Made by a program: the position numbers and the translations under genes. Below, piece by piece: positions 4,087-32,128 of a stretch of DNA of 64,000 bases. Source of the stretch: Bacteroidota bacterium (GTDB lineage Bacteria; Bacteroidota; Bacteroidia; Bacteroidales; UBA7960); NCBI GenBank assembly GCA_037441525.1, contig JBBISA010000002.1, positions 75,302-139,301 on the forward strand. Direction: 5' to 3'. The notes under the pieces were generated by a model. The model saw nothing but the letters and a program-made list of their open reading frames with translations. It was not told the DNA's origin and ran no database searches. Position 1 is the first letter of the stretch; every line of letters begins with the position of its first letter.

Positions 4087-4117
4087 TATTTCATTGAATT
4101 GATTTCTGCCGGCAAAG

Positions 4118-6833: not shown

Positions 6834-6889
6834 ATACCATAGGAAATTGGTTAAGAATGGTAAAATTATTCAATTATTGCAAACTATGC

Positions 6890-6916: not shown

Positions 6917-6949
6917 CCGTTGATTTGCTTCAGGAAATCTTAAGATTAT

Positions 6950-7963: not shown

Positions 7964-8001
7964 TAATATATTGTTTAACAGCTAATTAATTTTAAAAAAA
8001 A

Positions 8002-8418
8002 ATGAAAACACGAATTCTTCTTACCATTACTGTTTTATTCCTGCTAAGCTTGGGAAAACTTTCAGCACAACGCGGATACACCGATTTAAAAACCGAAGAA
8101 AACATAAAGATTATGTACCGCTGGCATAATGTTACCCCAACCGATAAAAATAGTGATGCGGTGCTGAATCTCAGGGTCACCAATGAAAACAATTATGCCG
8201 TGAAATGGACATTTACAGTGGTATTCTTGTCTGATAAAATGGCCCGCCACGAAAGTGAAACATCTTCGGTATGCATGAAACCCGGACAAAGTCTCAGAGG
8301 TGGTATTGCAGGATTAAGGTTCACTGCCCCTGGATTGAAGCTTGAAGAAGTTCAGTCTGCTTCATTCACCTGGGAATTTGGCGATTTTGAGGTGGAGAGA
8401 GTGGAGGGCTGTCGATAA
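8002..8418 (+). CDS. Hypothetical secreted protein
   Basis: Signal peptide MKTRILLTITVLFLLSLGKLSAQ. No recognisable domain. Confidence 0.5.
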   Translation: MKTRILLTITVLFLLSLGKLSAQRGYTDLKTEENIKIMYRWHNVTPTDKNSDAVLNLRVTNENNYAVKWTFTVVFLSDKMARHESETSSVCMKPGQSLRGGIAGLRFTAPGLKLEEVQSASFTWEFGDFEVERVEGCR

Positions 8419-8471
8419 CCATCCAATTTCACCGGACAACACTTATCAATACACATCAAATTCTGTTTTTC

Positions 8472-16172: not shown

Positions 16173-16281
16173 GCGGAGCTAAAATTTTGCGCAAACGTAA
16201 TAAAAATATCTCACCCAAAAATTCAATCTTTTACCCGGCGTTTTTTAAATCGTTTACTCAGACATTCAACATAATTGAGAG

Positions 16282-16289
16282 TACCTTTG
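16282..16289 (+). promoter_or_regulatory. Candidate -7 box TACCTTTG upstream of the COG0523 GTPase gene
   Basis: Matches TAnnTTTG 73 nt upstream of the ATG at 16362. I found no good -33 TTTG. Confidence 0.25.
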
Positions 16290-16361
16290 CAACTTTATCT
16301 CAATCTTTATGTTTCCATCAGCATGCTGATGTATTATTTTCTGACCAAATTTTATAATAGT

Positions 16362-17318
16362 ATGATACCCTATGAAGAGCCTTATAAAGCAAACAATTGC
16401 GTAAATGTTTATATAATTACCGGATTTTTGGGATCCGGAAAGACCACCCTTCTCAATGGTTTGCTTCAGGGTTTAGATTCGAAAAACAATTTTGTTATTG
16501 AAAACGAATTCGGACAGGTAAACATCGATAAAAGCCTGATTAAGGGGAATATAAATAAGGTTTTTGAGATCACCAACGGCTGTTTGTGTTGCAATCTCGA
16601 TTCCGATCTTTATGAGGCACTCGATCAGATAGCCCAACTGGAATCAAAGCCTGATAACCTTTTTATTGAAACAACCGGTATTGCTGATGCGGGAAATCTA
16701 TCTGCAATTTTCAGGGAAGATTTTGTCAGGGAAGTTTTTGATCTGAAAAAGATAATATGTGTGGTGGATGTTGAAGTGATTGAAGATTTTCTCTCTAAAA
16801 CCCCTGAAGCTGCGCGCCAGATTGTGGCTTCTGATCTTTTGGTACTTAATAAGGTAAATGCTTTGAATCAGGACGAGCTATTAAGGATTTCGGGTGTTGT
16901 TTCCAGAATTAATCCCTTTGCCAACCAGGTTAATACCACCGATGGGATAATTCTTACAGACCTGCTCAATGTCGCGAATCCGGCTAAGCCCCTTTTTCGT
17001 ATTGATCATGGTGTGCTAAATTCAACCACCCACGATGTTTCAACAGTTTATTATGAAACTGATGGGGTTTTTGATATTGAGAAACTGGAGTTGTTGCTTC
17101 GTACAAGCCTAACTATATATTATCAGGATATTTTCAGAATCAAGGGGTTTATAAGGGGGCTTCATAATAAAATCCATCTTTTGCAATCGGCAGGGAAGAC
17201 CCTGTCCATCAAACAGTCAGATGAAATTATTGAAAAGAGCCACCTGGTTTTTATTGGTCGCAAACTTACCACCGAAATTGCAGAACGGTTGTTAAATTCT
17301 GCAATAATAAAATCCTGA
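16362..17318 (+). CDS. CobW/COG0523 family G3E metallochaperone GTPase
   Basis: P-loop ITGFLGSGKTTLLN and metal-binding GCLCCN motif. Start moved to MIPYEEPY (ATG 16362). Confidence 0.8.
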   Translation: MIPYEEPYKANNCVNVYIITGFLGSGKTTLLNGLLQGLDSKNNFVIENEFGQVNIDKSLIKGNINKVFEITNGCLCCNLDSDLYEALDQIAQLESKPDNLFIETTGIADAGNLSAIFREDFVREVFDLKKIICVVDVEVIEDFLSKTPEAARQIVASDLLVLNKVNALNQDELLRISGVVSRINPFANQVNTTDGIILTDLLNVANPAKPLFRIDHGVLNSTTHDVSTVYYETDGVFDIEKLELLLRTSLTIYYQDIFRIKGFIRGLHNKIHLLQSAGKTLSIKQSDEIIEKSHLVFIGRKLTTEIAERLLNSAIIKS

Positions 17319-17341: not shown

Positions 17342-18439
17342 TTAGGGTTTGAAACAAAAATAAGAGGGGATTATTCCCACCCTAAGGGTATCAACAGGTT
17401 GCCCGTTGGGCTTTAAGCGGTAAACCCTTCCGGGTTGCACCAGGTTTTGGGCGTCGGCAATATAAATTTCTGATGACCAGGGATCAATGCCGATGTTGTA
17501 AAACCCGCCATCCATAGTGGTTTGGTGAGCACTTTTAACAAATAGCTCCGGTTCTGCTGTTGAAAGAACTACATGTCGATACACATGCCTGTTAACAAAA
17601 TATAGTGTGTCTCTACCTCCGTTAATACCCATTGCACGTGGATTATCGTTGATGTGAAAACGCCAGGTCTTTTCAACCTTACCGGTAAGGGCATCTATTT
17701 TCATTAACCCGGGGGCTTCATGGCCAAAGGGGTTGCCTTGAAAACCGCCATCACAAAGTATCCACAATTTGTTGTATCTGTCCAGAACCATGGCTTTGGG
17801 TTGTTTCAATACTTCAAGACGGCTTATCCATTTGTCGGTTTCAGTATCTATAACCAGTATGGAATTATCAAAACTCCAGCAATTTACAAAAAGATACTTT
17901 CCGAATTGTACCATCTGCTCTGTAGAATGTTGGTAAAAGGTCGAACCCTGATTTCGGACCGCGATAGAGCCTGTTAATTCAAAGGTTTTGGGGTTTATAA
18001 TGGTAATGCTTTGGGCATAAAGATCAGTAACGTAAGCCTTGGTGTCGGTTATAAAGTGCATATATCGAGGAGAAGTAAGCCCCGTTATCTTTCCAACCAT
18101 TTCAAAAGTATTTACATTCATCACATAAATCCGACCGCTATTGTTCACCACAATATATCCCAGGCTATCTCTGATGGTCATCGATAATGCCACATCACCC
18201 AGAGGTAATCCGTTTTTTCTGAAAAAGACTTCATTGAATACCTCGCCACTTTCTCTGTCGTAAAAGGAAAGCGAAGCATTGCCATACCAAAAATTCCCCT
18301 CGTTTACGATAAAAACACCACTGGAGGCTGCAGGCAGAGTTTGGTCGTCAATGCGCCAGAGAGCATCATCATCCATGCATGATGATGCCAGGATCACAAA
18401 GAAAATCATTATCAAGATTAATCGGAACTTATTTTTCAT
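17342..18439 (-). CDS. Beta-propeller surface lipoprotein (YncE/DUF5074-like; candidate BtuG analogue)
   Basis: Lipobox LASSC followed by [19 protein letters not shown] and repeated blade-like segments. Last gene of the riboswitch-controlled operon. Confidence 0.6.
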
Positions 18440-18570
18440 TTAGTAGTCTACATTTGGTGGTCGATTATATTTTAAGAATACGGATGGCGCTGATTTTTTA
18501 TGATTAAGTTGTACCGCAATTTATATGTCTCGCAGTAATATGCTAATAAATTAGCTAAACTAACCTGAAT

Positions 18571-18598
18571 CCACAATCCACAATCCACAATCATCAAT
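18571..18598. repeat. Short heptamer tandem repeat (CCACAAT x3 plus a degenerate copy)
   Basis: ccacaat ccacaat ccacaat catcaat, abutting and slightly overlapping the receptor stop codon at 18594-18596. Confidence 0.6.
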
Positions 18599-20594
18599 CA
18601 ATAAATGAAACCCTCAGCAATAGCATATAATTGCGTCCCGGCATAGGACGGTGAAGTACCGAACGATATCGTTCATTGAATAAGTTATAAACCTTTATTT
18701 CTGCTGCCAGATTTATTTCCTTGAATGAAAAACCTTTGCCGACCGACAAATCATTCATGAAATAGGGATAGAGCCACATTCTGCGGCTGATATCGTTGGT
18801 AGAGGTTGTGAAACGCTCGCCGTAAGAGTTGTGTTGCAAGGCCAGTTCGAAGCCCTTGTACTCCAGGTGAAATAAAAAATTTCCGGAGTGTAAAGGAATG
18901 TAAACCAGTTGTTTTCCATAAGAATCAGTACCCCAAACAAGAGTATCGCCCAGGTTTCGTGCCCTTGTAAGGGCATAAGTTGCCGAAATACGGTAATTGA
19001 TACTTTGCAGGGTACTTCTGATATCCATATTTGCCTCGAGGCCCTGCGACAGGACCCTGCTTATGTTGCGTGGTTCCCAGTATCCTTTGAAGCTCGGTAT
19101 CCAAATGATCCAATTGTTGATGTCAGATCGAAAAATTGTAGCCTGCGACTGTAGAATTGTCCTGTGGTGATTAACCCGGTAACGCAGACCCCATTCAAAG
19201 CTGACCCCATCTTCGGGCATAAGTTCAGGATTTCCGCCAGGTTGCCAGTAAAGGTCGTTGAGTGAAGGGTGTTTATAGTTTCGGGCAATGTTGCCTTTTA
19301 TAAGCAACTCTTTGCCAGGTAGCAGCAAATAGTCAAACCCGACATAAGGAATCAGGGGCGAGCGACGGGCACCAGCCCAATCCTGGCGAAACATCGTTTT
19401 CACATTCAGCCTGTCAGCAAATCTTTGATTAATGGCAATATAAAATGAGTAATCGAGCCGCTCGGTTTCATATCCTGATTTAGAAACACTATCTTTCGAT
19501 GCTACTGAATGCCAGTTTACCTGCACATTTGACTCAAAGGACAGGTTATTGCTCATCGTGTAATTGTAACCAATCTGATTCAGGAAGCTCTGTTGTGTAC
19601 TTTCTGAAAAAACTGCAGGAACCAGTCCCAGCCCTGCCACCTGGTTTCGCAGGAAATAGTCAAGGTTTTTAAGCGAGTAACCTGACCTAACAAGCATAGC
19701 CGATGTATTGGTATGCCTGCTCCAATCGGCCACAAATTTATGATCTTTGTCAACCTGGTTGTTCAGATTGGCATTAAGTGGGCCTTCGTAACTGGTAACA
19801 TTGGGAATGTTCCTGTCAGCCACCTGGCTCCACCATTTGGCTGAAACCAGTTGGTTGCCCCGGGGTTGAAGAAAGAACTCGTGCAGCATGCCATATCTTT
19901 TCCACCCGGCATTGCGGTTGGTGTCAATAGGATTTACCAGTTTGCCGTTTTCAAGAGTGGCAATGGTTTTGTTGAGAAAGGTATAGTTGTTATCAGACTG
20001 GTTATGATACAGCCTGCTCCGCCATTGCATTTTCCTGTTTCCGATTGCAAGATTAACATATTCATCCCATGTGGCGAAACTCCCGATGCCTTGCAGGTAG
20101 CTTACATTAAGGGTATTATCCCAATCGGGCTGGTTGCTTATATTGATACTGCCCCCCAGCCCGCCGCTGTTGTCGGCAATGGAAGCAGTGCCATGTTTCA
20201 GTGAAACATTATCAAGAATATAAACAGGGATAAGTGAAAAATCGACCATCCCTGCCATGGGGGAGTTGATGTTGATGCCGTTCCAGGTAACCTGGGTATG
20301 CGATGGCGATGTGCCTCTGAATGATGCTGTTGCAAGTGCACCCCGGCCATGACTTTTGATAAATACAGGTGTGTTTTCGCTCAATAAATCTGATAGTGAG
20401 CTGGTTATTTTTCGTTGCAAAATCATGGAATCTACGGTGGTTTGCGCCATACCGGCAGTTTCCTTCTGAAACATCCTGTTAGCCTGCACATCAACTCCTG
20501 GCAAGACAATTATTGAATCGGTAATTGACTGAGCAATTGCTGATACCTGAAGCAGAGTTAAAGCAATGATGAATATATGGTAGAATTTCTTCAT
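18594..20594 (-). CDS. btuB: TonB-dependent receptor, BtuB-like (cobalamin-riboswitch operon)
   Basis: Signal peptide MKKFYHIFIIALTLLQVSAIAQ (start at 20594), TonB-box/plug region (IIVLPGVDVQANR; FRGTSPSHTQVTWNGININSP) and a beta-barrel C-terminus. The B12 role is inferred from the upstream riboswitch. Confidence 0.75.
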   Translation of the reverse strand: MKKFYHIFIIALTLLQVSAIAQSITDSIIVLPGVDVQANRMFQKETAGMAQTTVDSMILQRKITSSLSDLLSENTPVFIKSHGRGALATASFRGTSPSHTQVTWNGININSPMAGMVDFSLIPVYILDNVSLKHGTASIADNSGGLGGSINISNQPDWDNTLNVSYLQGIGSFATWDEYVNLAIGNRKMQWRSRLYHNQSDNNYTFLNKTIATLENGKLVNPIDTNRNAGWKRYGMLHEFFLQPRGNQLVSAKWWSQVADRNIPNVTSYEGPLNANLNNQVDKDHKFVADWSRHTNTSAMLVRSGYSLKNLDYFLRNQVAGLGLVPAVFSESTQQSFLNQIGYNYTMSNNLSFESNVQVNWHSVASKDSVSKSGYETERLDYSFYIAINQRFADRLNVKTMFRQDWAGARRSPLIPYVGFDYLLLPGKELLIKGNIARNYKHPSLNDLYWQPGGNPELMPEDGVSFEWGLRYRVNHHRTILQSQATIFRSDINNWIIWIPSFKGYWEPRNISRVLSQGLEANMDIRSTLQSINYRISATYALTRARNLGDTLVWGTDSYGKQLVYIPLHSGNFLFHLEYKGFELALQHNSYGERFTTSTNDISRRMWLYPYFMNDLSVGKGFSFKEINLAAEIKVYNLFNERYRSVLHRPMPGRNYMLLLRVSFID

Positions 20595-20728
20595 GAAATA
20601 TTTAAAACCAGGCATTTCTGACAATTTTGAGTCATGACTCAAAAATATTATAATAATTTTGAGTTATCACTCAAATTCTATTATTTCCTTCTGTGTTGGT
20701 TTATTAGCAGGGGTTTCAAAGCTGGTTT

Positions 20729-22144
20729 TTATTTCTTTACAAATCTAAGGGTATGCGTTTTCGTTCCGGAAATTACTTTCAAAAAGTAAACACCTTTCGG
20801 CAATTCTGAAACAGCAATCCTTTCCCCTTCGGAATAAATCTCCTGATGCACAATCAATCTACCTTCAGGATTATAGATAAAAATTGAACCATTTTCTACC
20901 CCGTCAATGTAAATAAATTCGCTGGCCGGATTGGGATAAACCGAGAGATGGCGATTTTTACCGTCATAGGAAGGGAGATTGTTGCTCAGGTCAATCTTGA
21001 CTGAAATCGTTGCTGAAATTTGTGGGTTATCGGCCAGTGTGGCCGTCAGGGTAATTTGTCCTGGTGTTGCGGCATGCAGTACCATTTTATCATCAACAAA
21101 AGCCCCTTCAGGATTACTGGCCCAGAGTATTTTTTTATCTCTCTGTATTCTTCCCATGTTAAAGGCGAAAGCTTCCAGCTGAAAGGGTAAAATAGAGATA
21201 ACGGCGGGAAGGTCTCTAATTACAATCATTTCTGACAATCCTTTTAGAGTACTGTTGGGTTCTGCCATAACGGCCCCTGTTATTTCTGTGGATATTTCGC
21301 CCAACCAGCCTGCATCTGCCTGCATTCCTGTGTGTACTTTAATAAAGTGTATCTCATTCAAATCAACATAATTACCCTCTTCGTCCACAGCCCAGCCTAT
21401 ATCGAACCCATCGCCACCGGCATTTTCAACACTTGCTATGTAGGGATTTCCGGGTTTAGTAAAGGGCGCAGTACCACGGGGGCGATTATCGGCATAACCG
21501 AAAGTGCGCCGGGCAGATACTATGATTGAAGGGTTAGAAGTGTCTATTTTACCTTTTATTCTTGTTCCGGTGTATTTGTGCGAAACACTGCCTACCGATG
21601 GAAAAAGCGTTATGTCGGGGTAATAAGGTTGTGTATGAAAAGACTTGGCAAGAACAACTCCCGAATGTGCAAAATTATCGGCCCAGGGTACATTTACAGC
21701 CTGGGGAGAACCCGGGTTAAAGTAGGTCATTTCATTCCTTTGAAGGGTACCCCGGAAAAAATAATCGCTGCCGGCCAGTTCATACCAGTTATCATCGGGA
21801 AGTCCGTTCCCATTTTCATCTTTCATAACCGAAACAATGCCAGGTTCGCAAAAGGCAGGCAATGGATTTCCAAAAATGATAAAATCGACCCCGTAGGGAT
21901 TATCTGGATTATTCTTAACAGGTGATTCAAAACTGAATACAACATAACCGCCAAATGCTCCAAGGCTTAAGGCTCCATTGATTGTGCCCACAATTGATTG
22001 GGCAGCCTGAGGTGTGCCAAAGGGCTCTTTGTTGATAAACTGACCAGGAGCGGGCTGATAATCATGAATTTTGTGAATATACTGGGCCATTCCCAAATTG
22101 GAAAAAAAAAGGGAAATGGTTAAAATGGAGAAAATGAACTTCAT
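20729..22144 (-). CDS. Secreted surface protein with T9SS C-terminal sorting domain, N-terminal domain unknown
   Basis: Signal peptide MKFIFSILTISLFFSNLGMAQ. C-terminus SVYPNPASEFIYIDG...LPKGVYFLKVISGTKTHTLRFVKK is a typical Por/T9SS CTD. Confidence 0.7.
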   Translation of the reverse strand: MKFIFSILTISLFFSNLGMAQYIHKIHDYQPAPGQFINKEPFGTPQAAQSIVGTINGALSLGAFGGYVVFSFESPVKNNPDNPYGVDFIIFGNPLPAFCEPGIVSVMKDENGNGLPDDNWYELAGSDYFFRGTLQRNEMTYFNPGSPQAVNVPWADNFAHSGVVLAKSFHTQPYYPDITLFPSVGSVSHKYTGTRIKGKIDTSNPSIIVSARRTFGYADNRPRGTAPFTKPGNPYIASVENAGGDGFDIGWAVDEEGNYVDLNEIHFIKVHTGMQADAGWLGEISTEITGAVMAEPNSTLKGLSEMIVIRDLPAVISILPFQLEAFAFNMGRIQRDKKILWASNPEGAFVDDKMVLHAATPGQITLTATLADNPQISATISVKIDLSNNLPSYDGKNRHLSVYPNPASEFIYIDGVENGSIFIYNPEGRLIVHQEIYSEGERIAVSELPKGVYFLKVISGTKTHTLRFVKK

Positions 22145-22165
22145 AAATAGATGGTTTCAAATATG

Positions 22166-22199
22166 AAAAATCTGGAGGCTCTTGTGCCTCCAGATTTTT
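22166..22199 (-). terminator. Strong terminator-like hairpin after the first operon gene
   Basis: AAAAATCTGGAGGC-tcttgt-GCCTCCAGATTTTT, a 9-bp GC-rich core extended by five A-T pairs. It lies 9 nt downstream of the 517-aa ORF stop, with T-tracts on both strands. Confidence 0.55.
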
Positions 22200-22207
22200 G
22201 GTTGTTT

Positions 22208-23761
22208 TTATCTTAAAACTATCATGCTGACATGAATATTATCAGCAGAGAAGATTCTCATCACATAGGTACCTCTGGGTAAATCATTCAGGGTAATGGT
22301 TTCATTAGGGAGAAAATTAGTTCTATTCACAACCAGCCTGCCATCCAGACTGAAAATTTCAATGCTTGCGAAACCATAATTTTCAAGTCCTTTTATCTGT
22401 ATAATGCCATGGCTGGGATTGGGATAAACTGATATGCTGTGAGACAAGGCTGATTGGGCAGCAACGGTAGATTGAACGGTGACATTAAAACTGGTAGTTA
22501 CGGTTTTTCCGTTTGACAAAGCCTGAAGTGTGATAGTTGTAATGCCACTTTGTTTTTCAATAGGAGTAAAGTACAGGGTTCCATCTGAAATATGAAGGTC
22601 CCCGATATAATGATTGGTATTTGAAAGAATAGTTACTTTAATTTGACCGTCATCATCATCAGGATCAGAAAAAATACCTGCAAGATTTATTGCAATTCCA
22701 CTGTCTGTGTCAAGCATTTTTATGTCAGCAATCTCCTTTGCAACCAAAGGGGCAAGGTCTGTTGCCACATAAATATTATCAACAGCAAAATAGGCAGGTG
22801 TATTCATTCCCCAGGCACCAATATCACTTGATGAAAGCATGAAGCCAAGGCTGTCAACTTTTCCGAGAGAAGAAAGTTCGAGCCATTGCCAGGTTTCAAT
22901 TATGTAGTCTTTGGTGTTATCTTCAAAGCGGAAATCGGCAAGGTAAAAGTGGGTGGTTTCGGTAGGGTTTCCATCCCTGAACCCCCAGACTGATAGCCTG
23001 AACCAATCGGGGTCATTGCCATCAATGCCGCCAAACTTTTTCGAGAAGGCATCGCCATATTTCATGGAAAGGGCAGTATAAGTGTTGTTGGTAACAAACA
23101 TGCCCTTTATATTATGCGATGATGGATTGTTGAATTTTAAAATAGTTGGATAATAAGCAATGCCATAATTGCTCCCGCTTTGCAATTCAGGCCTAATCCC
23201 CGAGCCTGTAATAGCACTGTGTTGGTTCAACCAGCCAGGCGTAGTATTATCAGAAACATTGGAATAAGCCCATTGGCTCCAGGAACCCCAATCGGCATTA
23301 TAATAATTGGGAAAGAAGATTTCACCAGAAGCAAATCCCCCTGAACCATCAGAACCATTCCAATAATTTTCAGGATTGAGAGCCAAATCATCGAAATCGG
23401 AAAGCAGATAATCGCCAATTATTTCAGGATAAACCCCGACCAGAAAAGAATTTTCTGTTTCTAAGGTTCCTGACTTTGCCATAATGGAAATGGTGGTTTG
23501 GCCAGGAGATAAGAAACTGATGCTTAGCACCCCCTGGTCAATTGATGCCACTGCCACTTCGGGAAAAGAGTTTAGTGAAACCGCAAAATCAAGCGGTTCG
23601 GAGCCATCGCCGGTAAAAATTGTATCCAATAAAAACCTGACCGGTTCTGATGACATACTTCCATAAATAGTTGGGATAGATTTCTCAACAACGGGGAAAT
23701 TTTCGGCTAAAGAAACATAAACCCACAATAGTAGGGTAATGAAGATGTAGAAATTTTTCAT
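22208..23761 (-). CDS. DUF4465-like surface protein with Ig-like segments and T9SS C-terminal sorting domain
   Basis: Signal peptide, then a central region NYWNGSDGSGGFASGEIFFPNYYNADWGSWSQWAYSN that resembles DUF4465. C-terminus SVYPNPSHGIIQIKG...LPRGTYVMRIF is a T9SS CTD. First gene after the riboswitch. Confidence 0.65.
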   Translation of the reverse strand: MKNFYIFITLLLWVYVSLAENFPVVEKSIPTIYGSMSSEPVRFLLDTIFTGDGSEPLDFAVSLNSFPEVAVASIDQGVLSISFLSPGQTTISIMAKSGTLETENSFLVGVYPEIIGDYLLSDFDDLALNPENYWNGSDGSGGFASGEIFFPNYYNADWGSWSQWAYSNVSDNTTPGWLNQHSAITGSGIRPELQSGSNYGIAYYPTILKFNNPSSHNIKGMFVTNNTYTALSMKYGDAFSKKFGGIDGNDPDWFRLSVWGFRDGNPTETTHFYLADFRFEDNTKDYIIETWQWLELSSLGKVDSLGFMLSSSDIGAWGMNTPAYFAVDNIYVATDLAPLVAKEIADIKMLDTDSGIAINLAGIFSDPDDDDGQIKVTILSNTNHYIGDLHISDGTLYFTPIEKQSGITTITLQALSNGKTVTTSFNVTVQSTVAAQSALSHSISVYPNPSHGIIQIKGLENYGFASIEIFSLDGRLVVNRTNFLPNETITLNDLPRGTYVMRIFSADNIHVSMIVLR

Positions 23762-23889
23762 TTTAGAATTTTTGCTGCATTAATCTGTTAGTAAATGGGT
23801 TTTCAGACTTTTGCAGCTAACGACAGGAGGGAAAAACACCCGGGATATCGTTTTGACCAGCTACCTGTTCTCCGCAGGCTGCAAAAATC

Positions 23890-24055
23890 ATTGTTTATCC
23901 CTGGCAGGTCTTCTGACTTGCTTCTGTTTCAGGCGCCTTCCCCAATGCATACGCACGAGTGACATGTAGCCCGAACCTTTGGTGAAGCTTACAGCAGCGG
24001 GAACTGTTGCCGATTTTCACGACATTCCCTTTTCATTCCATTAATGGAAACCAAA
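23890..24055 (-). promoter_or_regulatory. Cobalamin (B12) riboswitch
   Basis: The minus strand reads AAAAGGGAATGTCGTGAAAATCGGCAACAGTTCCCGCTGCTGTAAGC (24029-23987), then GGGGAAGGCGCC, then the B12 box GCAAGTCAGAAGACCTGCC (23921-23903). All are hallmark conserved cobalamin-aptamer elements, about 135 nt upstream of the ATG at 23761. Confidence 0.9.
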
Positions 24056-24062
24056 GACGCAA

Positions 24063-24092
24063 CAAATGTAGGTCAATTTTTTATCTTTGAAA
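24063..24092 (-). promoter_or_regulatory. Candidate promoter of the riboswitch operon (-7 TACATTTG)
   Basis: The minus strand has TACATTTG (24070-24063) just upstream of the aptamer. The -33 element is only TTTC, at 18-nt spacing. Confidence 0.35.
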
Positions 24093-24315: not shown

Positions 24316-25866
24316 ATGCCACGAAACATACAGCAATTTAGTGAAGAGAGATACAAATCGGTGGTGAGATTATCAAATACCGGAGTATGGGAATATCATT
24401 CTGATTCTCAATACCTTCTTTGTAGCCCCGAGTATTTTGAAATGCTCGGAATGGATGTCAGGGATTATCCTATGGATGGCCGGGCAAACCTGAAGGAGAC
24501 CTGGTTAGAACTTCTCCATCCAGAAGACTGTGAGCCTGCTGCCCAAAGGTTTCTTGATTACCTCAAAAGGGGGTCGCCAGGCATGTATGAAAATTATTTC
24601 AGGATGAAACACAGCAATGGCAAATGGCTGTGGATATGGTCGCGTGGGCAGACACTGAGAAATGTTGACGGCAGCTTTAGCGACCTTAAGGTGGGTATAC
24701 ATATCAACATTACTGAACGAAAACTTGCTGAAGACGCTCTTTATGAAAGTGAGGAGAAACTTATTGCCCTTTTCGATGCAATGACTGAAATTGTTGTTTT
24801 GTATGAAGTGGTTTTTGATGAGGCCGGAAAACCCGTCAACTACCGCATAACCGATTGCAATGCTGCCTTTACCAATAATGTCGGTATCACTCATGATTTT
24901 GCAGTTGGCAAACTTGCCACTGAGGTTTATTAAGTGCCTGAATCTCCCTATATTAAAGAATTTATGGATGTGGCCATTACCGGTATACCTTTTTACTTTG
25001 ACACCTATTTTCCATCCATGAAAAAGTACTTTTCTATTTCGGTGGTTTCACTCGGATTAAACAGGTTTGCAACTGTAACTACCGATATTACAAATATTAA
25101 ACAGGCCGAACAAATCATTGCAGCCAAAAATAAGGAGCTCGAACAGATAGTCTGTGTAGCATCGCACGATCTAAGATCGCCCCTTGTCAACGTTGAAGGT
25201 TATAGCCAGGAACTCGGATTCGTATTTGACGACCTGAGGTCTATCATGGAAGATTTAAAAGATGAACCTGATAAAATAATTCCTGCCTTAGAGGGTTTAC
25301 TGGCAGAAATTACCGATTCTTTAACCCATATCCGGTTAAGTGTAAGGCAGATGGATGCATTGCTCAAAGGATTATTAACCCTTTCGAGGGTTGGCAGAGC
25401 TGCACTTAAGCATGAAAAAGTGAATATGGGTTTATTACTTCAAAGATTAATTGCCTCCATGGATTATCAAATTCACAAGTTGGACGGACAACTTGAAGTA
25501 TCTGTTTTGCCATACTGTTGGAGCGATTCTGTGCAGATATCGCAGGTCTTTTCCAATTTAATAGGAAATGCTTTAAAATACTCCCATCCTGAGAGAAAAC
25601 CCCTTGTGAAAATATATGGGTTTTCTGATAATGGAAAATCAAAATACGTGGTGGAAGACAATGGAATTGGCATAGATAAAGAACATCAGGAAATAATTTT
25701 CGAATTGTTTCACAGGCTCGATCCAACGGCAAAAGAGGGAGATGGGCTGGGACTTACCATTGTAAAACAAATTCTTTTCAGACTCGACGGCAGTATTACC
25801 GTTGAATCGGAAGTCGGAGAAGGAAGCAGATTTATTGTTACACTGCAAGGCGCAGAAAATGATTGA
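24316..25866 (+). pseudogene. PAS-PAS sensor histidine kinase interrupted by in-frame TAA (24931-24933)
   Basis: Track ORFs 24316..24933 and 24934..25866 share one frame and are separated only by TAA. The second PAS domain spans the stop (...GKLATEVY*VPESPYIKEFMDVAITGIPFYFDTYFPSMKKYFSISV...). HisKA VASHDLRSPL and a HATPase domain follow. Confidence 0.6.
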
Positions 25867-25940
25867 AAAGGTTTATCAATTGCAGGGATTATTATGTTGA
25901 TAATTGTCCCTAAAATACTAACATAAAAAGAAAAACAAAA

Positions 25941-26384
25941 ATGAACAAGGAAGTAATAATTCTGGTGGCGGAAGATAACGAGGGTCATGCAGGTTTGATA
26001 CTAAAGAATCTTGCAAGGGCAGGAATTGTAAATCCCATTATCCATTTTATAAATGGACAAGAAGTGCTTGATTATCTTTACCGTTCGGGTCCGGGCCCCC
26101 ATAGAAAGGGCGGAGAATCATATATTTTGCTGCTCGATATAAGAATGCCTAAGGTAAATGGGGTAGAAGTTTTAAAACGTTTAAAATCCGATCCTGAATT
26201 AAAAAAAATACCTGTGGTAATGATCACTACCACCGACGACCCAAGAGAGGTGGAAAACTGCCACGAGTTGGGTTGCAGCAATTACATTACCAAGCATGTT
26301 GAATACGAATCTTTTGCAAACGCCATAAGGCAATTTGGCTTGTTCCTGTCAGTGGTTCAGATACCACAGATTAATATAGATTAA
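25941..26384 (+). CDS. Single-domain response regulator (receiver only)
   Basis: ILVAEDNEGH and LLLDIRMPKVNG motifs. 147 aa with no output domain. Confidence 0.85.
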   Translation: MNKEVIILVAEDNEGHAGLILKNLARAGIVNPIIHFINGQEVLDYLYRSGPGPHRKGGESYILLLDIRMPKVNGVEVLKRLKSDPELKKIPVVMITTTDDPREVENCHELGCSNYITKHVEYESFANAIRQFGLFLSVVQIPQINID

Positions 26385-26420
26385 TGTTGGAATAAACAAT
26401 GCATAATAACTGCAACAATA

Positions 26421-28013
26421 ATGGACCAGCCCCGCTCTAATAAACCATTTAATTTTCGCAAGATTTTGGTGGTGGAAGATGATCCCGGTCTTTTAGCTCT
26501 GATTGTAAAAACCTTAATTCGTTCTGGGTTTGATGCCCAAGGGGCATCCGATGGGAAGAAAGCCCTTGAAGCCATCAAAGAAGATCCCCAAAGGGTTATT
26601 CTCATCGACCATCAATTGCCCGATATGAATGGTATGGAGCTGGTTAGAAAGCTTAAGGTAGAAGGGAATGAAGTAAATTTTATCTCAATGACAGGACAAG
26701 GCGACGAAAAGCTTGCCGTTGAGATGATGAAACTTGGTGCATCAGACTATCTTGTAAAAGAAATAGGGTTTATAAGTCTCTTGCCCGGTATCCTGGAAAG
26801 AGTGTTTCGAAACATCGAAACCGAAGTTCTTTTAAGAAAGGAACAGGAATCAAGAGCCATTCTTGAAAAGGAAATTGAAATCGCCAGAAATACGCTGCTA
26901 TTCAAACAAAAATTCCTGGCAAGCATTAGCCACGAAATTCGCACACCATTAACCGGGGTTATCGGAACCATAGAACTGCTTGAAAAAACAGGACTTGATG
27001 ATCGCCAGTTCGATCTGATAAATACCCTTAGGCAATCGTCTGAGAACCTTAGCGAAATAATTGATCAGGTACTTGATTATTCGAGAATTGAAGCCGGAAG
27101 GGTTAATCTGAACAAAACAGGTTTTTGCATTGATGAATTTGTGCAAGAAATTGAAGGTGTTTTTAATAGTCTATGCCGTAAACCAGTTATATTCAATACA
27201 TTGGTTGAAAAAAACTTTCCTGTTTCCATTATAGCTGATGAAAAAAGAATATTGCAGATAGTTAACAATCTTTTGGTGAATGCAGTAAAGTTTACCGAGC
27301 AGGGAGAAATTACCTTAGAGATAAGGCTTGGCAAAAAAACTAATGAAAATGCCCATTTAATAGAATTTTCTGTTTCTGATACAGGCATTGGAATTTCGGA
27401 AGAAAACCTGAAAAATATCTTTACACCCTTTTCTCAGTTTCATCAGATTGAATCGCCAGATTATTCAGGTACCGGGCTGGGCTTGTCTATTTGCAAAGAG
27501 TTGGTTGAATTACATGGCGGACGTATTGAAGCTGAAAGTAAGGTGGGAAAAGGAAGCACATTCCGGTTTTACATTGAAGCCGAAATTTCGGATACCAAAT
27601 CCCTGATGAAAGGAAAACCCAATCAGATTAAGGTAAACAACAAGAAATCGCTGAGAGTGTTGTTAGTAGAGGATAAATTGATCAATCAGAAAGTAATAAA
27701 TCTTCTTCTCACAGCACTTGGGCATAAGGTAATTATTGCAGGTAATGGCTCGGAAGCGCTAAAAAAATTCAGACCGGGTATATTTGATCTTATCCTCATG
27801 GATATTCAGATGCCGGTGATGGATGGAATTACCGCTACTCGCATGCTCAGGGATAAATACAAAAATGAATTACCTCCCGTGGTAGGGCTCAGTGCCAATG
27901 CATTTGAAGGAGACCGCGAAAGATACCTGAACCAGGGCATGGATGACTACCTGACAAAACCGGTGCGCTCTGATGACTTTATCACTTTAATTGATAAAAT
28001 CTTTGCACATTAA
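26421..28013 (+). CDS. Hybrid histidine kinase (REC-HisKA-HATPase-REC)
   Basis: N-terminal receiver (ILVVEDD, LIDHQLPDMNG), HisKA SISHEIRTPL, HATPase GTGLGLSICKELVELHGG and a C-terminal receiver (LILMDIQMPVMDG). Confidence 0.9.
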   Translation: MDQPRSNKPFNFRKILVVEDDPGLLALIVKTLIRSGFDAQGASDGKKALEAIKEDPQRVILIDHQLPDMNGMELVRKLKVEGNEVNFISMTGQGDEKLAVEMMKLGASDYLVKEIGFISLLPGILERVFRNIETEVLLRKEQESRAILEKEIEIARNTLLFKQKFLASISHEIRTPLTGVIGTIELLEKTGLDDRQFDLINTLRQSSENLSEIIDQVLDYSRIEAGRVNLNKTGFCIDEFVQEIEGVFNSLCRKPVIFNTLVEKNFPVSIIADEKRILQIVNNLLVNAVKFTEQGEITLEIRLGKKTNENAHLIEFSVSDTGIGISEENLKNIFTPFSQFHQIESPDYSGTGLGLSICKELVELHGGRIEAESKVGKGSTFRFYIEAEISDTKSLMKGKPNQIKVNNKKSLRVLLVEDKLINQKVINLLLTALGHKVIIAGNGSEALKKFRPGIFDLILMDIQMPVMDGITATRMLRDKYKNELPPVVGLSANAFEGDRERYLNQGMDDYLTKPVRSDDFITLIDKIFAH

Positions 28014-28117
28014 TTATTCTTTCTCACAATTTTAATTAACAATGTGCTGTTTAGGCAATATATTATTTATTTTGACTGCAATTTCTTTATAGTTATTCAA
28101 TTGCTTTAATCCAATCC

Positions 28118-30748
28118 ATGCAGCCACGTATCAGGAGCGAAAAATTCATCCAGGCTAAGATATTTTTTAGCTATACCCTATTGGTTATCATGCTGGCAGC
28201 TATTGTTTTCTTTGCCTTCACCAGCCTAAAACAATTAACTCATTCCACCGACCGCCTTGCGCAACCCAACCCCAGGGTTGATTTGCTTCACAAAATTGTA
28301 TATTCTATCTATCGGGCCGAAAGTAATATCCGCTCATATTCTTTAAACCAAAGAGATGAATTTCTTAATGCATATTTTAACGAACTTAATCGAATCAATC
28401 AAATGGTTGATTCGCTTCAATTACTTGCCGAGGGAGATACCATTATCCGGCAAACCATTGATTCCATAAATATTGAACTATTGGGCAAAACCCGACTTCT
28501 CGACCAATTTATTGTTCTGAAAAAGCTTGATGTTAATTCTGTGTTTTACCATCAGGCAATGGAAAATATACTTCAGGCCACCAATGGAGAAAGCCGTATC
28601 AGGGAAACTACCCACCAGACAATTGTAGATACTTTGCCTTCAACCCATCAAAACATAACACAGGAAGAAGTTGTGCGCGAAAAAAGCAACTTTTTCGACA
28701 AGCTAAAGACTTTTTTTACCGGTAAACGCAACGAGCGACCTGAAAATGCTCATCTGACTGTGCAAATGCCCGAAAAATTTTATCCGCCTGTTTCTGCCCG
28801 AACCGATTCAATCGTTACTGTATATCAGGATGCAGACGCATTGAGGCGCGAGATTGAAAATACTATGTCAACCTTGTTTCAAAAACTCTACTCGCGCCAG
28901 GAAAATCTGCGTAGAGCTGAAACCCGTATTTTGCTGGAAGACAAAAGAATAATGGACCGTATTTGGTCGCTGGTTATTTTTCTTGAAGAACATGAAAGGG
29001 AAAAAGCACTGTCGGAAGCAGCCATGGCTCACACCAATGTGGGCAACACTACTATTAAAATCATGTTGGTTTTACTGATATCAATTTTAATCCTGATATT
29101 TTTTTCCTGGCTCCTTTTCAACGATATCAATAAATCGCGTTATTACAGGCAGCAACTTATGGCCGAAAAAGCCAGAGCTGAAGAGTTGGTAAAGGTAAAA
29201 CAACGCTTTATGGCCAATATAAGCCATGAAATCCGTACACCACTAAATAGTATTGTCGGGTTTTCTGAGCAATTATTAAAGGGGGAACAAACCAGCAAAA
29301 CCGGAATTTTTGTCGATGCTATACATCAGTCATCCAAGCATTTACTCGAAATTGTAAATGATATTCTTGATTTTTCTAAAATGGAGGCCGGTAAGGTTTC
29401 TCTTGAGCTGGAACCCGTGAATATTGAACAAATAGCCAATGATGTATATGTTGCATTGGAAGGTATGGCACAGGCAAAGCAACTCGAGTTTGTTCTGGAT
29501 ACTGCATCCCTGAAAAACAAATGGGTATATGCTGATTCGGTCAGAATAAGGCAAATACTGTTTAATCTGGCTGGTAATGCAGTAAAATTTACCAATCAGG
29601 GATGGGTAAAATTGTCAGTATTAACTGTCAACGTGAGCAATATTGAAAACAGTGAAAATATTGTTAGGATTTCAGTTGAAGACACAGGCATTGGCATTGA
29701 ACCCTCACAGCAGGAAAAGATATTTGAAGAATTTTCGCAGGCTGATAGCCAATCAACACGTCAGTTTGGGGGTACCGGTTTAGGGCTTACCATTACCAGA
29801 AAACTTGTGGAAATGATGAATGGGCAGTTTTTTCTTGAAAGTATACCAGGTGAAGGGTCAGAATTCAGGATAGAAATACCTTTGCTGGTTGTCCAAGAAC
29901 CACACAATCCTGATGCAATCAAAGAAACGATTCTTCCCACCCATTTTTCGGCCAACATTCTTCTTGTTGACGATGACCGGCTCAACAGGCTTCTGATCAA
30001 TTCCATCTTTGAACCCTGGAAAGGCTTGAAGATAACCGAAGCAGAAGATCCGCAAAAAGCCCTGGAAATACTTGCACAAAATTCCTTTGATTTGATTATT
30101 ACTGATGTACAAATGCCAGGAATGACGGGCATGGAAATGGCTGTAAACATCAGAAATGCTTCAACAGAGAATAAAAGTGTCCCCATTATAGCCTGTACCG
30201 CAGATATTACTCCCGAAACGATTACCGCCATTCATGAAGCTGGCATAAATGATTATCTTCTAAAACCTTTTTCTGACGCCGATTTAAAAAGAAAGCTAAT
30301 GCATTGGCTGGACGAAAAATATCAGGCTGCCAAAAAGTCCAAAACAGATAATGAACAACCTGACCGGAAAGATGCCATGGAGCCAAAGGAAAAATTTGTT
30401 TATTCAATTGACGGACTCAGGAAGTTTACAGGCGACAACCCTGTTACCTTATCAACCATCCTTAAATCGTTTAGGGAAGATACTCTGAACAATGTAAAGC
30501 TATTGGAAGAGCACTTATTATCAGGTAACAGGAATGAGATTCATTTCGTTGTGCACAAAATGAGCCACATGTTTGAATTGCTTGATGTTGATTCTGCACG
30601 CGACGCTTTATCCAGACTTGGCAATAAAGGAGTAGCAAATCTTACTAATGATCAGCTAACCAATGATGTAAAACAACTTATTGAAATTTCATTCCGGCTG
30701 CTAACAGTACTTGACGAAGACTGGAAAATCGAACTAATAAACCACTGA
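28118..30748 (+). CDS. Hybrid sensor histidine kinase with extracytoplasmic CHASE3-like sensor, REC and Hpt domains
   Basis: Two transmembrane segments flank a ~270-aa sensor region. HisKA NISHEIRTPL, HATPase GTGLGLTITRKLVEMMNG, REC LIITDVQMPGMTG, and a C-terminal Hpt-like segment (IHFVVHKMSHMFELL). Confidence 0.88.
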   Translation: MQPRIRSEKFIQAKIFFSYTLLVIMLAAIVFFAFTSLKQLTHSTDRLAQPNPRVDLLHKIVYSIYRAESNIRSYSLNQRDEFLNAYFNELNRINQMVDSLQLLAEGDTIIRQTIDSINIELLGKTRLLDQFIVLKKLDVNSVFYHQAMENILQATNGESRIRETTHQTIVDTLPSTHQNITQEEVVREKSNFFDKLKTFFTGKRNERPENAHLTVQMPEKFYPPVSARTDSIVTVYQDADALRREIENTMSTLFQKLYSRQENLRRAETRILLEDKRIMDRIWSLVIFLEEHEREKALSEAAMAHTNVGNTTIKIMLVLLISILILIFFSWLLFNDINKSRYYRQQLMAEKARAEELVKVKQRFMANISHEIRTPLNSIVGFSEQLLKGEQTSKTGIFVDAIHQSSKHLLEIVNDILDFSKMEAGKVSLELEPVNIEQIANDVYVALEGMAQAKQLEFVLDTASLKNKWVYADSVRIRQILFNLAGNAVKFTNQGWVKLSVLTVNVSNIENSENIVRISVEDTGIGIEPSQQEKIFEEFSQADSQSTRQFGGTGLGLTITRKLVEMMNGQFFLESIPGEGSEFRIEIPLLVVQEPHNPDAIKETILPTHFSANILLVDDDRLNRLLINSIFEPWKGLKITEAEDPQKALEILAQNSFDLIITDVQMPGMTGMEMAVNIRNASTENKSVPIIACTADITPETITAIHEAGINDYLLKPFSDADLKRKLMHWLDEKYQAAKKSKTDNEQPDRKDAMEPKEKFVYSIDGLRKFTGDNPVTLSTILKSFREDTLNNVKLLEEHLLSGNRNEIHFVVHKMSHMFELLDVDSARDALSRLGNKGVANLTNDQLTNDVKQLIEISFRLLTVLDEDWKIELINH

Positions 30749-30757
30749 AAGTCGTCT

Positions 30758-32128
30758 TTAATCAAGCGGAATCCCGTAGGCTTTAAGTTTATTGTATAGT
30801 GTGCGACGGTCAATATCGAGCAGCATGGCAGCCTTGGTTTTATTGTATTTTACTTTTTCTAAGGTAGCAACAATGATATCCCTTTCGGTTTTTTCGGCCT
30901 GACTTTTCAGAAATTTTTCACCAGCAGCCATTTCACTATTAGTATCAGGAACTGAGCTCTGGATTACTTCAGCAGGCAACGATTTCACCTCAAGTTCATT
31001 CTCCCGTGAGAGTAAAACAGCCCTTTTAATTACATTTCTTATTTCCCTTATATTGCCAGGCCAGGGGTAGTTTTGAAAAATATCCATCAGATGTGCCGGT
31101 ATGGAATTTACTTGCCGGTTCAGTTCGCGGTTCGATGAATCCAGGAAATGATTCACAAACAAAGGAATATCTTCCTTTCTTGCACGCAGGGGAGGAACCT
31201 TAATGGTAAACTCGTTGAGCCGGTGAAAAAGGTCTTCTCTGAAGCCACCCTGTTTTACTTGCTCCAGCAGGTCTTCATTGGTTGCGGCAAGTATGCGCAC
31301 ATCAACCGGAATATCTTTATTGCTGCCAATTTTTTTTATATGTCGCTCCTGTATAGCACGCAACAATTTTACCTGTATATCGTAGGACAGGTTGCCAATT
31401 TCATCGAGAAACAAGGTGCCCTGGTTTGCTGCCTCAAACTGGCCGGTTTTATCCTGAATAGCACCTGTAAATGAACCCTTTAGGTGCCCAAAGAATTCAC
31501 TTCCGGCCAATTCGCGCGATAATGCCCCGCAATCAACTGCTACAAAAGGTTTGTTGAACCGGCTGCTTTTTTCATGAATTTTACGGGCTATATATTCTTT
31601 TCCCGTGCCGCTTTCTCCCTGAATAATAACTGATAAATTAGTGCCGGCAACCAAACCTATGTGCTCATGAATAATACGTGCTGCCTCGCTAACTCCTTCC
31701 AGATAATCTTTTTGCTGGGTGCCATGTTTTGCCGTTGTTCCTGATATTGCCGCAGACTTGTGCGTTTCGAGCTTTTCAAGCCCACTTTTTATATGTGCCA
31801 GCAAGTCGTCGGGAATTACTGGTTTTGATACATATTCGTAGGCGCCAAACTTTATAGCGTTTACTGCCATTCGTATGTCGGCGTAGGCTGTCATAATTAT
31901 CGACACCGAATGGGGAGATTTTTCTCTGGTAATTTTTAGCAATTCTATACCATCGTTGTCCGGTAGCCTGAAATCTGTAAGAATAACATCATACTTTCCG
32001 GTTTCAATCATTTCTATACCTTTTTTTCCATTGTGAGCAAGATGGGCATCAAACCCATTTCTTTGCAGAAAGGCCTGAAGAGTCAGGCAAAAGGTTATGT
32101 CATCGTCAATTATCAGAACTTTTTTCAT
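30758..32128 (-). CDS. Sigma-54-dependent response regulator (NtrC family: REC-AAA+-HTH)
   Basis: REC (VILTDFRLPDNDG), Walker A GESGTGKE, GAFTGA-like loop GSFTGA, and a C-terminal Fis-type HTH (KTKAAMLLDIDRRTLYNKLK). Confidence 0.92.
   Translation of the reverse strand: MKKVLIIDDDITFCLTLQAFLQRNGFDAHLAHNGKKGIEMIETGKYDVILTDFRLPDNDGIELLKITREKSPHSVSIIMTAYADIRMAVNAIKFGAYEYVSKPVIPDDLLAHIKSGLEKLETHKSAAISGTTAKHGTQQKDYLEGVSEAARIIHEHIGLVAGTNLSVIIQGESGTGKEYIARKIHEKSSRFNKPFVAVDCGALSRELAGSEFFGHLKGSFTGAIQDKTGQFEAANQGTLFLDEIGNLSYDIQVKLLRAIQERHIKKIGSNKDIPVDVRILAATNEDLLEQVKQGGFREDLFHRLNEFTIKVPPLRARKEDIPLFVNHFLDSSNRELNRQVNSIPAHLMDIFQNYPWPGNIREIRNVIKRAVLLSRENELEVKSLPAEVIQSSVPDTNSEMAAGEKFLKSQAEKTERDIIVATLEKVKYNKTKAAMLLDIDRRTLYNKLKAYGIPLD

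Follow-up and report, generated by a model that had tools for sequence, protein, structure and literature searches.

A cobalamin-riboswitch operon of an uncultured Bacteroidota bacterium in which predicted corrinoid binders carry type IX secretion sorting domains

The minus strand of a 64,000-nucleotide (nt; 64 kb) stretch of DNA, referred to here as the window, carries an operon that most probably serves the B12-repressed capture and uptake of corrinoids. It comprises a candidate promoter, a cobalamin riboswitch and the genes btuJ, btuH, btuB and btuG, and its two accessory binders, BtuJ and BtuH, are predicted to be sorted by the type IX secretion system (T9SS). A probability of roughly 0.82 is assigned to this explanation as a whole. 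The host is an uncultured, probably anaerobic Bacteroidota bacterium, whose closest relatives are metagenome-assembled genomes (MAGs) of environmental Bacteroidales and Marinilabiliales. A preliminary description of region 17342-24092 had reported a minus-strand cobalamin riboswitch ahead of four co-oriented genes, and had proposed that two of the encoded proteins use the T9SS instead of lipidation.

At the level of sequence, the routing of both accessory corrinoid binders through the T9SS rather than through lipidation is supported, because neither protein has a lipobox cysteine, both C-terminal sorting domains (CTDs) exceed the threshold score, and the modelled CTD fold reaches a template modelling (TM) score of 0.84 against a T9SS-bound CTD. 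One operon would then employ two surface routes, with lipidation for BtuG, the lid on BtuB, and the T9SS for the peripheral binders. The preliminary description had presented this arrangement as a feature of "this organism". The T9SS-sorted layout is instead common, and most of the closest relatives in the databases share it.

Organisation of the operon

The features of the operon, all within the region of the preliminary description, are as follows (aa, amino acids; PDB, Protein Data Bank; AF2, AlphaFold2).

24063..24070, minus strand: candidate -7 promoter box for the Bacteroidota sigma-A, TACATTTG, coinciding with the first 8 nt of the Rfam match; consensus TAnnTTTG
23886..24070, minus strand: cobalamin riboswitch aptamer RF00174; full-model Rfam match
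23762..23885, minus strand: expression platform, 124 nt; predicted fold with hairpins, none with a U-run behind it
22208..23761, minus strand: btuJ-like gene, 517 aa; PF14717, TIGR04183, PDB, AF2/Foldseek
22763..23410, minus strand: DUF4465 (BtuJ) B12-binding domain of the 517-aa protein, predicted; PF14717, PDB match, AF2, Foldseek
22211..22432, minus strand: T9SS type A CTD of the BtuJ-like protein; TIGR04183 1.4e-11, PF18962 3.2e-10
22166..22199, no strand assigned: terminator-like hairpin in the gap from the btuJ stop codon to the btuH start codon; perfect 14 bp, 6-nt loop, A5/T5 flanks
20729..22144, minus strand: btuH-like gene, 471 aa; PDB 7BIZ/8BLW_B, AF2/Foldseek, TIGR04183
21260..22087, minus strand: BtuH-type B12-binding domain, predicted; PDB sequence match, Foldseek, contact residues
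20732..20947, minus strand: T9SS type A CTD of the BtuH-like protein; TIGR04183 1.7e-14, Foldseek 8GLK_D
18594..20642, minus strand: btuB, TonB-dependent B12 transporter of the Bacteroides type; PDB 8BMX_C and 8P98_A, Plug domain
17342..18439, minus strand: btuG, surface lipoprotein, seven-bladed beta-propeller, BtuB lid; PDB 8BMX_D, PF16819, lipobox

By Rfam, the window contains a single cobalamin riboswitch (23886-24070, minus strand). Its match to RF00174 reaches 105.1 bits at E = 2.8e-25, the gathering score being 31.5, spans the complete model (1-189) and includes the B12 box AGUCAGAAGACCUGCC within the model alignment; the reported riboswitch thereby passed a covariance-model check. Downstream lie four minus-strand open reading frames (ORFs) of 517, 471, 682 and 365 aa in the order J-H-B-G. 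The spacing is 124 nt from the aptamer to btuJ, 63 nt from btuJ to btuH, 86 nt from btuH to the btuB ORF and 154 nt from btuB to btuG.

TAnnTTTG is the -7 promoter consensus of Bacteroides and Flavobacterium, recognised by the Bacteroidota sigma-A. In 49 of 62 related loci the motif occupies the same register with respect to the riboswitch; across the window it is not enriched (60 matches, 71.6 expected). Because the box holds this fixed register, transcription of the operon probably starts a few bases before P1. A scan of the window for sigma-70-type promoters was uninformative, with 27 matches where 21.9 were expected.

The 14-bp hairpin at 22166-22199, located 21 nt 5' of the btuH ATG, resembles a bidirectional intrinsic terminator and might raise the expression of btuJ relative to btuH, btuB and btuG; BtuJ1 is the most abundant protein of the Bacteroides thetaiotaomicron B12 loci (BtuJ1 preprint). 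As a conserved regulatory feature the hairpin was rejected, a similar one being present in only 3 of 45 related loci.

The last two genes encode BtuB and BtuG. The 682-aa ORF is counted from a TTG, and its real start is likely the ATG at 20615 or 20594; on an independent assembly (L001), the gene call for the same btuB is 673 aa long. Its product, which had been described as a TonB-dependent receptor, contains a Plug domain and matches the Bacteroides BtuB structures 8BMX_C (4e-109) and 8P98_A (2.4e-107). The 365-aa protein, described as a lipoprotein beta-propeller, likewise proved to be a BtuG homologue: residues 6-364 match PDB 8BMX_D at 2.6e-107 with about 350 aligned positions, and PF16819 (DUF5074) scores 89 bits. 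Its N-terminus holds a lipobox (..ILASSC followed by MDDD), that is, a lipobox and then an acidic export signal, as in Bacteroides surface lipoproteins; the corresponding export signal of BtuJ1 is CSDDDE (BtuJ1 preprint).

The two predicted corrinoid binders

The 517-aa protein is, by homology, a BtuJ/DUF4465 B12 binder. The DUF4465 likeness noted beforehand is borne out by PF14717 at 178 bits against a cut-off of 25, and BtuJ1 of B. thetaiotaomicron (PDB 9QPM/9FCT) is matched at about 1e-25 (9QPM, 5e-26), alongside other DUF4465 structures. An AF2 model built on an alignment of homologues has a predicted local distance difference test (pLDDT) score of 87.7, and Foldseek places it on the augmented beta-jellyroll of 9HMU (2.6e-18; target TM-score, TMt, 0.80 for chain B) and of 9QPM (TMt 0.76). 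A signal peptide is followed by an immunoglobulin (Ig)-like domain (~23-111), the DUF4465 jellyroll (~118-333), an Ig/cadherin-like domain (~340-430), a linker and the CTD (~444-517); residues 434-440 of the linker have low pLDDT and are predicted to be disordered, and residues 444-517 are modelled as beta-rich.

The preliminary description had treated DUF4465 as a mere candidate binder, which understated the case: the family is BtuJ, and B12 binding has been shown for all eight diverse members assayed (PMC13398666). The DUF4465 protein F2I9N3 of Fluviicola taffensis is also known to bind B12. The family signature consists of the HI-loop (G/N)TPAYF, whose tyrosine (Y245 of BtuJ1) is kept in 97% of homologues, and the DE-loop tyrosine Y146 (PMC13398666). 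The 517-aa protein carries N320-TPAYF-325, in which Y324 corresponds to Y245, together with Y228 (equivalent to Y146) and W158 (equivalent to W78 of BtuJ1). Among 24 DUF4465 members of the clade, Y324, T321 and P322 are present in 24 of 24, and Y228 in 22.

The N-terminal domain of the 471-aa protein is predicted to be a BtuH B12-binding domain. By phmmer, residues 17-288 match the B12-binding domain of BtuH2 (PDB 7BIZ_A, chain residues 215-485) at E = 2.8e-37, and the domain also matches the BtuH domain fused to BtuG1 (PDB 8BLW_B) at E = 7.7e-37. The model of this protein, again AF2 on a homologue alignment (pLDDT 88.1), was compared with BtuH as the preliminary description had suggested, and Foldseek retrieved 8BLW_B (1.7e-20) and 7BIZ (4e-20) with probability 1.0 over about 300 columns. 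The preliminary description had called this domain unrecognised. The label is correct for Pfam and NCBIfam, which list no family for residues 17-300 because neither has a model for the BtuH domain; solved BtuH structures do match it. The protein consists of a signal peptide with predicted cleavage between A20 and Q21, the BtuH domain (~17/20-295), a Big_2-like Ig domain (~305-385), a disordered linker and the CTD (~400-471).

BtuH2 contacts B12 through the polar residues Q333, N399, H476, Y510, W511 and W577 and through van der Waals contacts of F401 and L578 (PMC8941943). Equivalents of four of the six polar residues are kept in the 471-aa protein (Q35, N93, H170 and W280), together with L281. 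Across 35 BtuH sequences of the clade, Q35 and N93 are found in all 35 and H170 in 31, and among 143 members of the BtuH family the glutamine and asparagine are nearly universal and the histidine is kept in about 90%. Corrinoid binding by both window proteins would follow from this homology. The btuH-like gene shares an operon with btuB, the ORF of which begins on the same strand after a gap of 86 nt, and at least 70 of 80 related loci are arranged alike.

Sorting through the type IX secretion system

The T9SS CTDs that had been read at the ends of the first two proteins are confirmed by TIGR04183 (T9SS type A), which scores 44.2 bits for the BtuJ-like and 53.6 bits for the BtuH-like protein against a cut-off of 23; the matches end at residue 515 of 517 and at residue 471 of 471. 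In the model of the BtuH-like protein, the CTD superimposes on 8GLK_D, the CTD of NucA bound to the T9SS, with a TMt of 0.84 and a root-mean-square deviation of 2.1 Å over 75 residues (Foldseek). These two proteins are the only CTD-bearing ORFs in the window. Within the BtuH clade, the CTD motif positions P404/P406, G428, G451 and Y453 are invariant, and N405 is kept in at least 90% of sequences.

The N-termini contain the sequences MKNFYIFITLLLWVYVSLA followed by ENF in the BtuJ-like protein and MKFIFSILTISLFFSNLGMA followed by QYI in the BtuH-like protein. Signal-peptide cysteines are absent from both, and the BtuJ-like protein has no cysteine within its first 40 residues, which leaves no lipobox. 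By inspection, both carry signals for signal peptidase I (SPI), with hydrophobic N-terminal helices at residues 2-15 and 2-19 and AXA-like sites (..GMA before Q, ..SLA before E). The predicted mature N-terminal glutamine of the T9SS-type BtuH proteins (residue 21, in A followed by QYI) recurs in at least 90% of the 35 sequences. Under the Bacteroidetes Q-rule, SPI substrates expose a glutamine at the mature N-terminus, where pyroglutamate is formed, and the BtuH-like protein fits this rule. To judge from the cargo domains and the taxonomy of the relatives, the source genome very likely encodes a T9SS. The exchange of lipidation for the T9SS, as first proposed, is sustained at the level of sequence.

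Conservation among relatives

A scan of species-representative genomes found relatives in at least 498 loci or genomes; the neighbourhood counts given here cover the best 80, and CTD counts per locus refer to complete ORFs. Among these 80 loci, btuB and btuG lie directly downstream on the same strand in 63, and a DUF4465 gene lies upstream in 45, the exceptions being mostly contig ends. A riboswitch-like element precedes the genes on the same strand in 69 (nhmmer), and Rfam confirmed all seven that were sampled, at 97-114 bits. CTDs are present in 76 of 77 BtuH and 43 of 45 BtuJ proteins and in none of 59 BtuG proteins, and nearly all of 66 BtuG N-termini show the lipoprotein signature C-M-(D/K)-D-(D/E). 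The recurrence of the riboswitch, btuB/btuG, the CTDs and fusions of the two binders across relatives speaks for selection on the layout.

The carriers among the best 80 are environmental Bacteroidales, Marinilabiliales, Lentimicrobiaceae, Prolixibacteraceae, Paludibacteraceae and Salinivirgaceae, with two MAGs labelled Chlorobiota, one labelled Cytophagales and a single cultured strain, Marinilabiliaceae ANBcel2 (L019). In the nearest species-representative genome, "Sphingobacteriia bacterium S07.Bin180" (L002), BtuH is 56% identical. Proteins that combine DUF4465 with a CTD are also encoded by Maribellus comscasis and M. maritimus. The NCBI names of these relatives are only "T9SS type A sorting domain-containing protein" or "DUF4465 domain-containing protein".

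The pattern extends to protein clusters. With the full-length 471-aa protein as query, PF18962 is present in all 120 of the top 90%-identity clusters, most of them of about 470 aa and about 15 of 700-800 aa with an additional PF14717 domain. A BtuH-domain scan of 1.84 billion cluster representatives returned 1832 matches, 430 of them at E <= 1e-30, and 106 of the best 150 representatives at 50% identity end in a CTD. In 77 of these 106 the BtuH domain directly follows the signal peptide, while in clear lipoproteins the domain ends 3-8 residues before the C-terminus. Identity-based clustering of the domain, which is crude, did not cleanly split the lipoprotein from the CTD forms. Proteins of 2500-3500 aa were also observed (P0366, P0367, P0375, P0383), with Gram-positive-style signal peptides and the BtuH domain in mid-protein; the domain thus seems to occur in giant surface proteins outside Bacteroidota as well.

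Single-ORF fusions of DUF4465, BtuH and CTD, 700-800 aa in length, were found in about nine loci (L006, L013, L022, L023, L024, L026, L027, L034 and L041), and fusion proteins include P0012, P0015, P0025, P0047, P0084 and others. Since natural fusions of this Rosetta-stone kind imply a functional link between the two binders, they suggest that BtuJ and BtuH work together.

When the DUF4465 domain was searched by itself, the window's own protein was not among the matches listed, an omission taken to be an artefact of the search tool; of the top 120 clusters, 70 carry a CTD, about eight are short lipoproteins (..AC-QKDD..) and at least 25 have PEP-CTERM-like tails. These tails (..PEPxx-hydrophobic-RRRR), on which PF07589 was flagged in two cases, are exemplified by P0169, P0177, P0202, P0221, P0223, P0239 and P0241, presumably from phyla other than Bacteroidota. 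PEP-CTERM would represent a third surface-sorting system attached to the same predicted B12-binding domain.

A different arrangement was observed in L066, L068 and L070 (Lentimicrobiaceae-type). There, two tandem cobalamin-riboswitch-like elements at ~6700-8500 flank a gene for a distant BtuG-like propeller (32-33% identity), which lies upstream of the gene for T9SS-type BtuH, and no BtuB is encoded within 10 kb downstream.

Proposed mechanism and alternative explanations

When intracellular cobalamin is low, the riboswitch would permit expression of the operon. BtuB is expected to form the TonB-dependent outer-membrane channel and BtuG its lipid-anchored propeller lid at the surface, like their homologues in the BtuBG complexes of B. 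thetaiotaomicron. BtuJ and BtuH would cross the inner membrane through Sec and the outer membrane through the T9SS, after which the CTD would be removed and the protein either attached to the surface or released, both outcomes being possible from the sequence. Outside the cell, by homology with the B. thetaiotaomicron relay, they would bind corrinoids and pass them to BtuG/BtuB. Compared with the lipoproteins, a lipid at the N-terminus would have given way to a CTD at the C-terminus as the anchor, and the order would be mirrored into binding domain, Ig-like spacer and CTD, and this mirroring would keep the binding domain distal to the anchor and the membrane.

Several observations weigh against this explanation. 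BtuB falls below the equivalog cut-offs of the Escherichia coli type (TIGR01779, TonB-B12, 99.5 against 599.7 bits; NF007926, 58.9 against 836). By Pfam, the 37 other larger ORFs of the window include no BtuFCD-type ABC transporter or periplasmic-binding-protein gene, which extends to the whole window the absence of BtuFCD already noted for the locus; the genes for inner-membrane transport, whether btuFCD or equivalents, must lie in another part of the genome. The same 37 ORFs include no T9SS machinery gene. Between the aptamer and the btuJ start, neither the fold prediction nor the terminator scan found a U-run-tailed hairpin or a minus-strand terminator site, and no helix that clearly sequesters the start site could be assigned. 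The terminator-like hairpin between btuJ and btuH is strong, so that the four genes are perhaps neither stoichiometric nor one unit. In the 471-aa protein, Y510 and W511 of BtuH2, two of the six polar contacts, are replaced by I207 and I208; these two positions vary in every class of the 143 family members, lipoproteins included, and we read them as probably specific to BtuH2 rather than family-defining. Finally, no T9SS-type member with measured corrinoid binding, secretion or regulation was identified.

Among the alternatives, one concerns what follows secretion. BtuJ and BtuH could be released after CTD cleavage and act as soluble corrinoid scavengers, corrinophores comparable to haemophores, that return to BtuG/BtuB; this is regarded as possible, although unlikely. 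Nothing in the sequence fixes the fate of the proteins after secretion, and type A CTD cargo is known in both states, anchored to anionic lipopolysaccharide in Porphyromonas gingivalis or released in soluble form, as are many enzymes of Flavobacterium johnsoniae. In B. thetaiotaomicron, vesicle-borne BtuJ already serves as an extracellular reservoir at a distance from the cell (PMC13616437). Against release, the conserved Ig-like spacer ahead of the CTD and a domain order that mirrors the lipid-anchored forms suggest the stalk of a tethered protein, and a high-affinity binder free to diffuse would become a public good wherever communities are dense.

It is considerably less probable that the CTD proteins do not bind corrinoids here and are adhesins or structural surface proteins that share the folds, with the B12 function confined to BtuBG. 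Such a role would accord with the two missing polar contacts of BtuH2 and with the finding that some paralogues in the B12 loci of B. thetaiotaomicron (BtuK2, BtuL) do not bind cobamides (PMC13616437). The near-invariance of the DUF4465 signature residues in the clade and of Q35, N93 and H170 in BtuH, the B12 binding of all eight diverse DUF4465 proteins assayed (PMC13398666), and a linkage to the riboswitch, btuB and btuG that is near-universal in the best 80 loci all argue against it.

A location of both proteins in the periplasm, with CTDs that are non-functional relics or with no T9SS in the organism, is very improbable. It would be in keeping with a window that holds no T9SS gene and with the statement that non-lipoprotein DUF4465 members bear periplasmic targeting signals (PMC13398666). 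The CTD motif residues are nevertheless kept, and, unlike relics, the CTDs persist across species in nearly every BtuH and BtuJ of the related loci. Marinilabiliales, Prolixibacteraceae, Paludibacteraceae and Cytophagales moreover belong to the T9SS-bearing part of the phylum.

The suggestion of the preliminary description that the 471-aa protein holds a previously unknown corrinoid-binding module, for which only the Pfam-A/NCBIfam blank over residues 17-300 could speak, is refuted by the matches to 7BIZ and 8BLW_B and the Foldseek probability of 1.0, the domain having been described with bound B12 in 2022 (PMC8941943).

Beyond the T9SS-sorted uptake operon proposed for the window, a broader generalisation is advanced tentatively, at slightly less than even odds. 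T9SS-sorted BtuH and BtuJ, sometimes fused, may be the usual means of extracellular corrinoid capture in much of the T9SS-bearing, non-gut Bacteroidota, and the T9SS may be required there for B12 acquisition. The lipoproteins of gut Bacteroides, which are not known to have a T9SS, would then be one anchoring solution among several, such as the PEP-CTERM forms of DUF4465 in other phyla. One anchor would repeatedly have replaced another, each exchange accompanied by a rearrangement of domains that kept the binding domain distal.

Neighbouring genes

Convergent with btuG lies a gene for a CobW/COG0523-type G3E GTPase (PF02492 and CobW_C; 16275-17318, plus strand). It was rejected as a part of the system, being found within 10 kb only in L002 and L012, and is probably a mere neighbour. 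Directly upstream and divergent, a tightly packed group of signalling genes (24316-32128) codes for a PAS protein, histidine kinases, hybrid kinases, response regulators and a sigma-54 activator; the group recurs on the independent Logan contig L001, and no link to B12 was seen in it. Further along the plus strand, a 396-aa ORF with a TonB-receptor Plug only (34310-35500) is followed by a 207-aa ORF without a Pfam match (35665-36288), and the two may be a split or frameshifted TonB-dependent receptor.

Other genes concern metabolism. Two radical-SAM proteins and a HydF GTPase are encoded at 2986-5344 and 38227-39342 and point to HydE/F/G-type maturases of an [FeFe]-hydrogenase, and genes for an electron transfer flavoprotein and an acyl-CoA dehydrogenase occupy 54657-58458. 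The gene content is that of a source organism that is probably an anaerobe.

Significance

Work on accessory B12 capture has centred on the lipoproteins of gut Bacteroides. In this locus and in hundreds of relatives, the same two binding domains appear to be routed through the T9SS in environmental Bacteroidota, which would extend the known cargo of the T9SS by a nutritional class devoted to vitamin scavenging and predicts that T9SS mutants of the carriers are impaired in B12 uptake. The expectation that T9SS-anchored B12 capture had not been characterised agrees with the literature searched: the terms "T9SS" and "type IX" are absent from the BtuH paper, the BtuJ1 preprint, the DUF4465 paper and the 2026 review, and full-text searches joining T9SS with B12, cobalamin or BtuB returned nothing relevant.

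More than 70% of DUF4465 members have been reported as lipoproteins and the rest as carrying periplasmic targeting signals (PMC13398666). The present counts suggest that these localisation statistics need revision, since they took no account of sorting signals at the C-terminus (T9SS CTD, PEP-CTERM). The fusions of BtuJ with BtuH additionally provide evidence for joint action of the two binders, a step listed as unresolved in the 2026 review. Neither a new binding fold nor a new transport principle is involved; the system is mechanistically close to that of Bacteroides and constitutes a widespread, coherent variant of it. Every component comes from a known family, and no description of the sorting route, of the mirrored order or of the J-H fusions was found in the BtuH and BtuJ literature searched.

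Comparison with known systems

In B. thetaiotaomicron, BtuB/BtuG and the proteins BtuH, BtuJ, BtuK and BtuL form an extracellular lipoprotein relay (PMC13616437, PMC10404256, PMC8941943, PMC12751083). Loci 1-3 of this species resemble the operon described here in their riboswitch control, the BtuB/BtuG pair, the accessory BtuH/BtuJ domains within the operon and a BtuG lipoprotein with an acidic signal. They differ in that BtuJ and BtuH are lipid-anchored there, whereas here they combine an SPI signal with a type A CTD for the T9SS and have a mirror-image domain order; furthermore, they carry btuFCD, btuK and btuL, none of which is present in this locus, where the order is J-H-B-G. To our knowledge, B. 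thetaiotaomicron, a gut Bacteroides, has no T9SS.

The single binders show the same combination of likeness and difference. BtuH2 (BT1956, 7BIZ) and the BtuH domain of BtuG1 (8BLW_B) are homologous to the N-domain of the 471-aa protein, with 32-33% identity and with the equivalents of Q333, N399, H476, W577 and L578 kept. In BtuH2 the domain stands C-terminally, behind Ig/PKD domains on a lipid anchor, whereas here it stands N-terminally, before a Big_2-like domain and the CTD, and the equivalents of Y510/W511 are aliphatic. BtuJ1 and BtuJ2 (BT1491, BT1957; 9FCT, 9QPM, 9I2L) and D5EK51 (9HMU) share the augmented beta-jellyroll with the 517-aa protein (TMt 0.76-0.80). BtuJ1 and BtuJ2 are lipoproteins of ~250-300 aa, processed by signal peptidase II and provided with an export signal, in contrast to the 517 aa found here, where Ig-like domains flank the jellyroll on both sides and a CTD is present. 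The lipid anchor is a feature of the BtuJ proteins of B. thetaiotaomicron and not of the Pfam family PF14717.

With the type A cargo of the T9SS, such as the gingipains of P. gingivalis and NucA of F. johnsoniae (8GLK), the two binders share a CTD of ~75 aa (TIGR04183/PF18962) with a predicted beta-sandwich fold, and a Sec signal. The known cargo differs in consisting mainly of proteases, glycoside hydrolases, nucleases, adhesins and motility proteins, and no cargo for vitamin or corrinoid capture was found reported in the literature searched. A functional parallel concerns haem, captured in P. gingivalis by the haemophore-like HmuY together with the TonB-dependent receptor HmuR. HmuY is not homologous to the BtuJ/BtuH binders, takes another ligand and is a lipoprotein instead of a T9SS cargo. 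Both systems nevertheless have in common, in T9SS-bearing Bacteroidota, an extracellular or surface binder that hands a tetrapyrrole to a TonB-dependent receptor, a step that for BtuJ and BtuH is predicted by homology.

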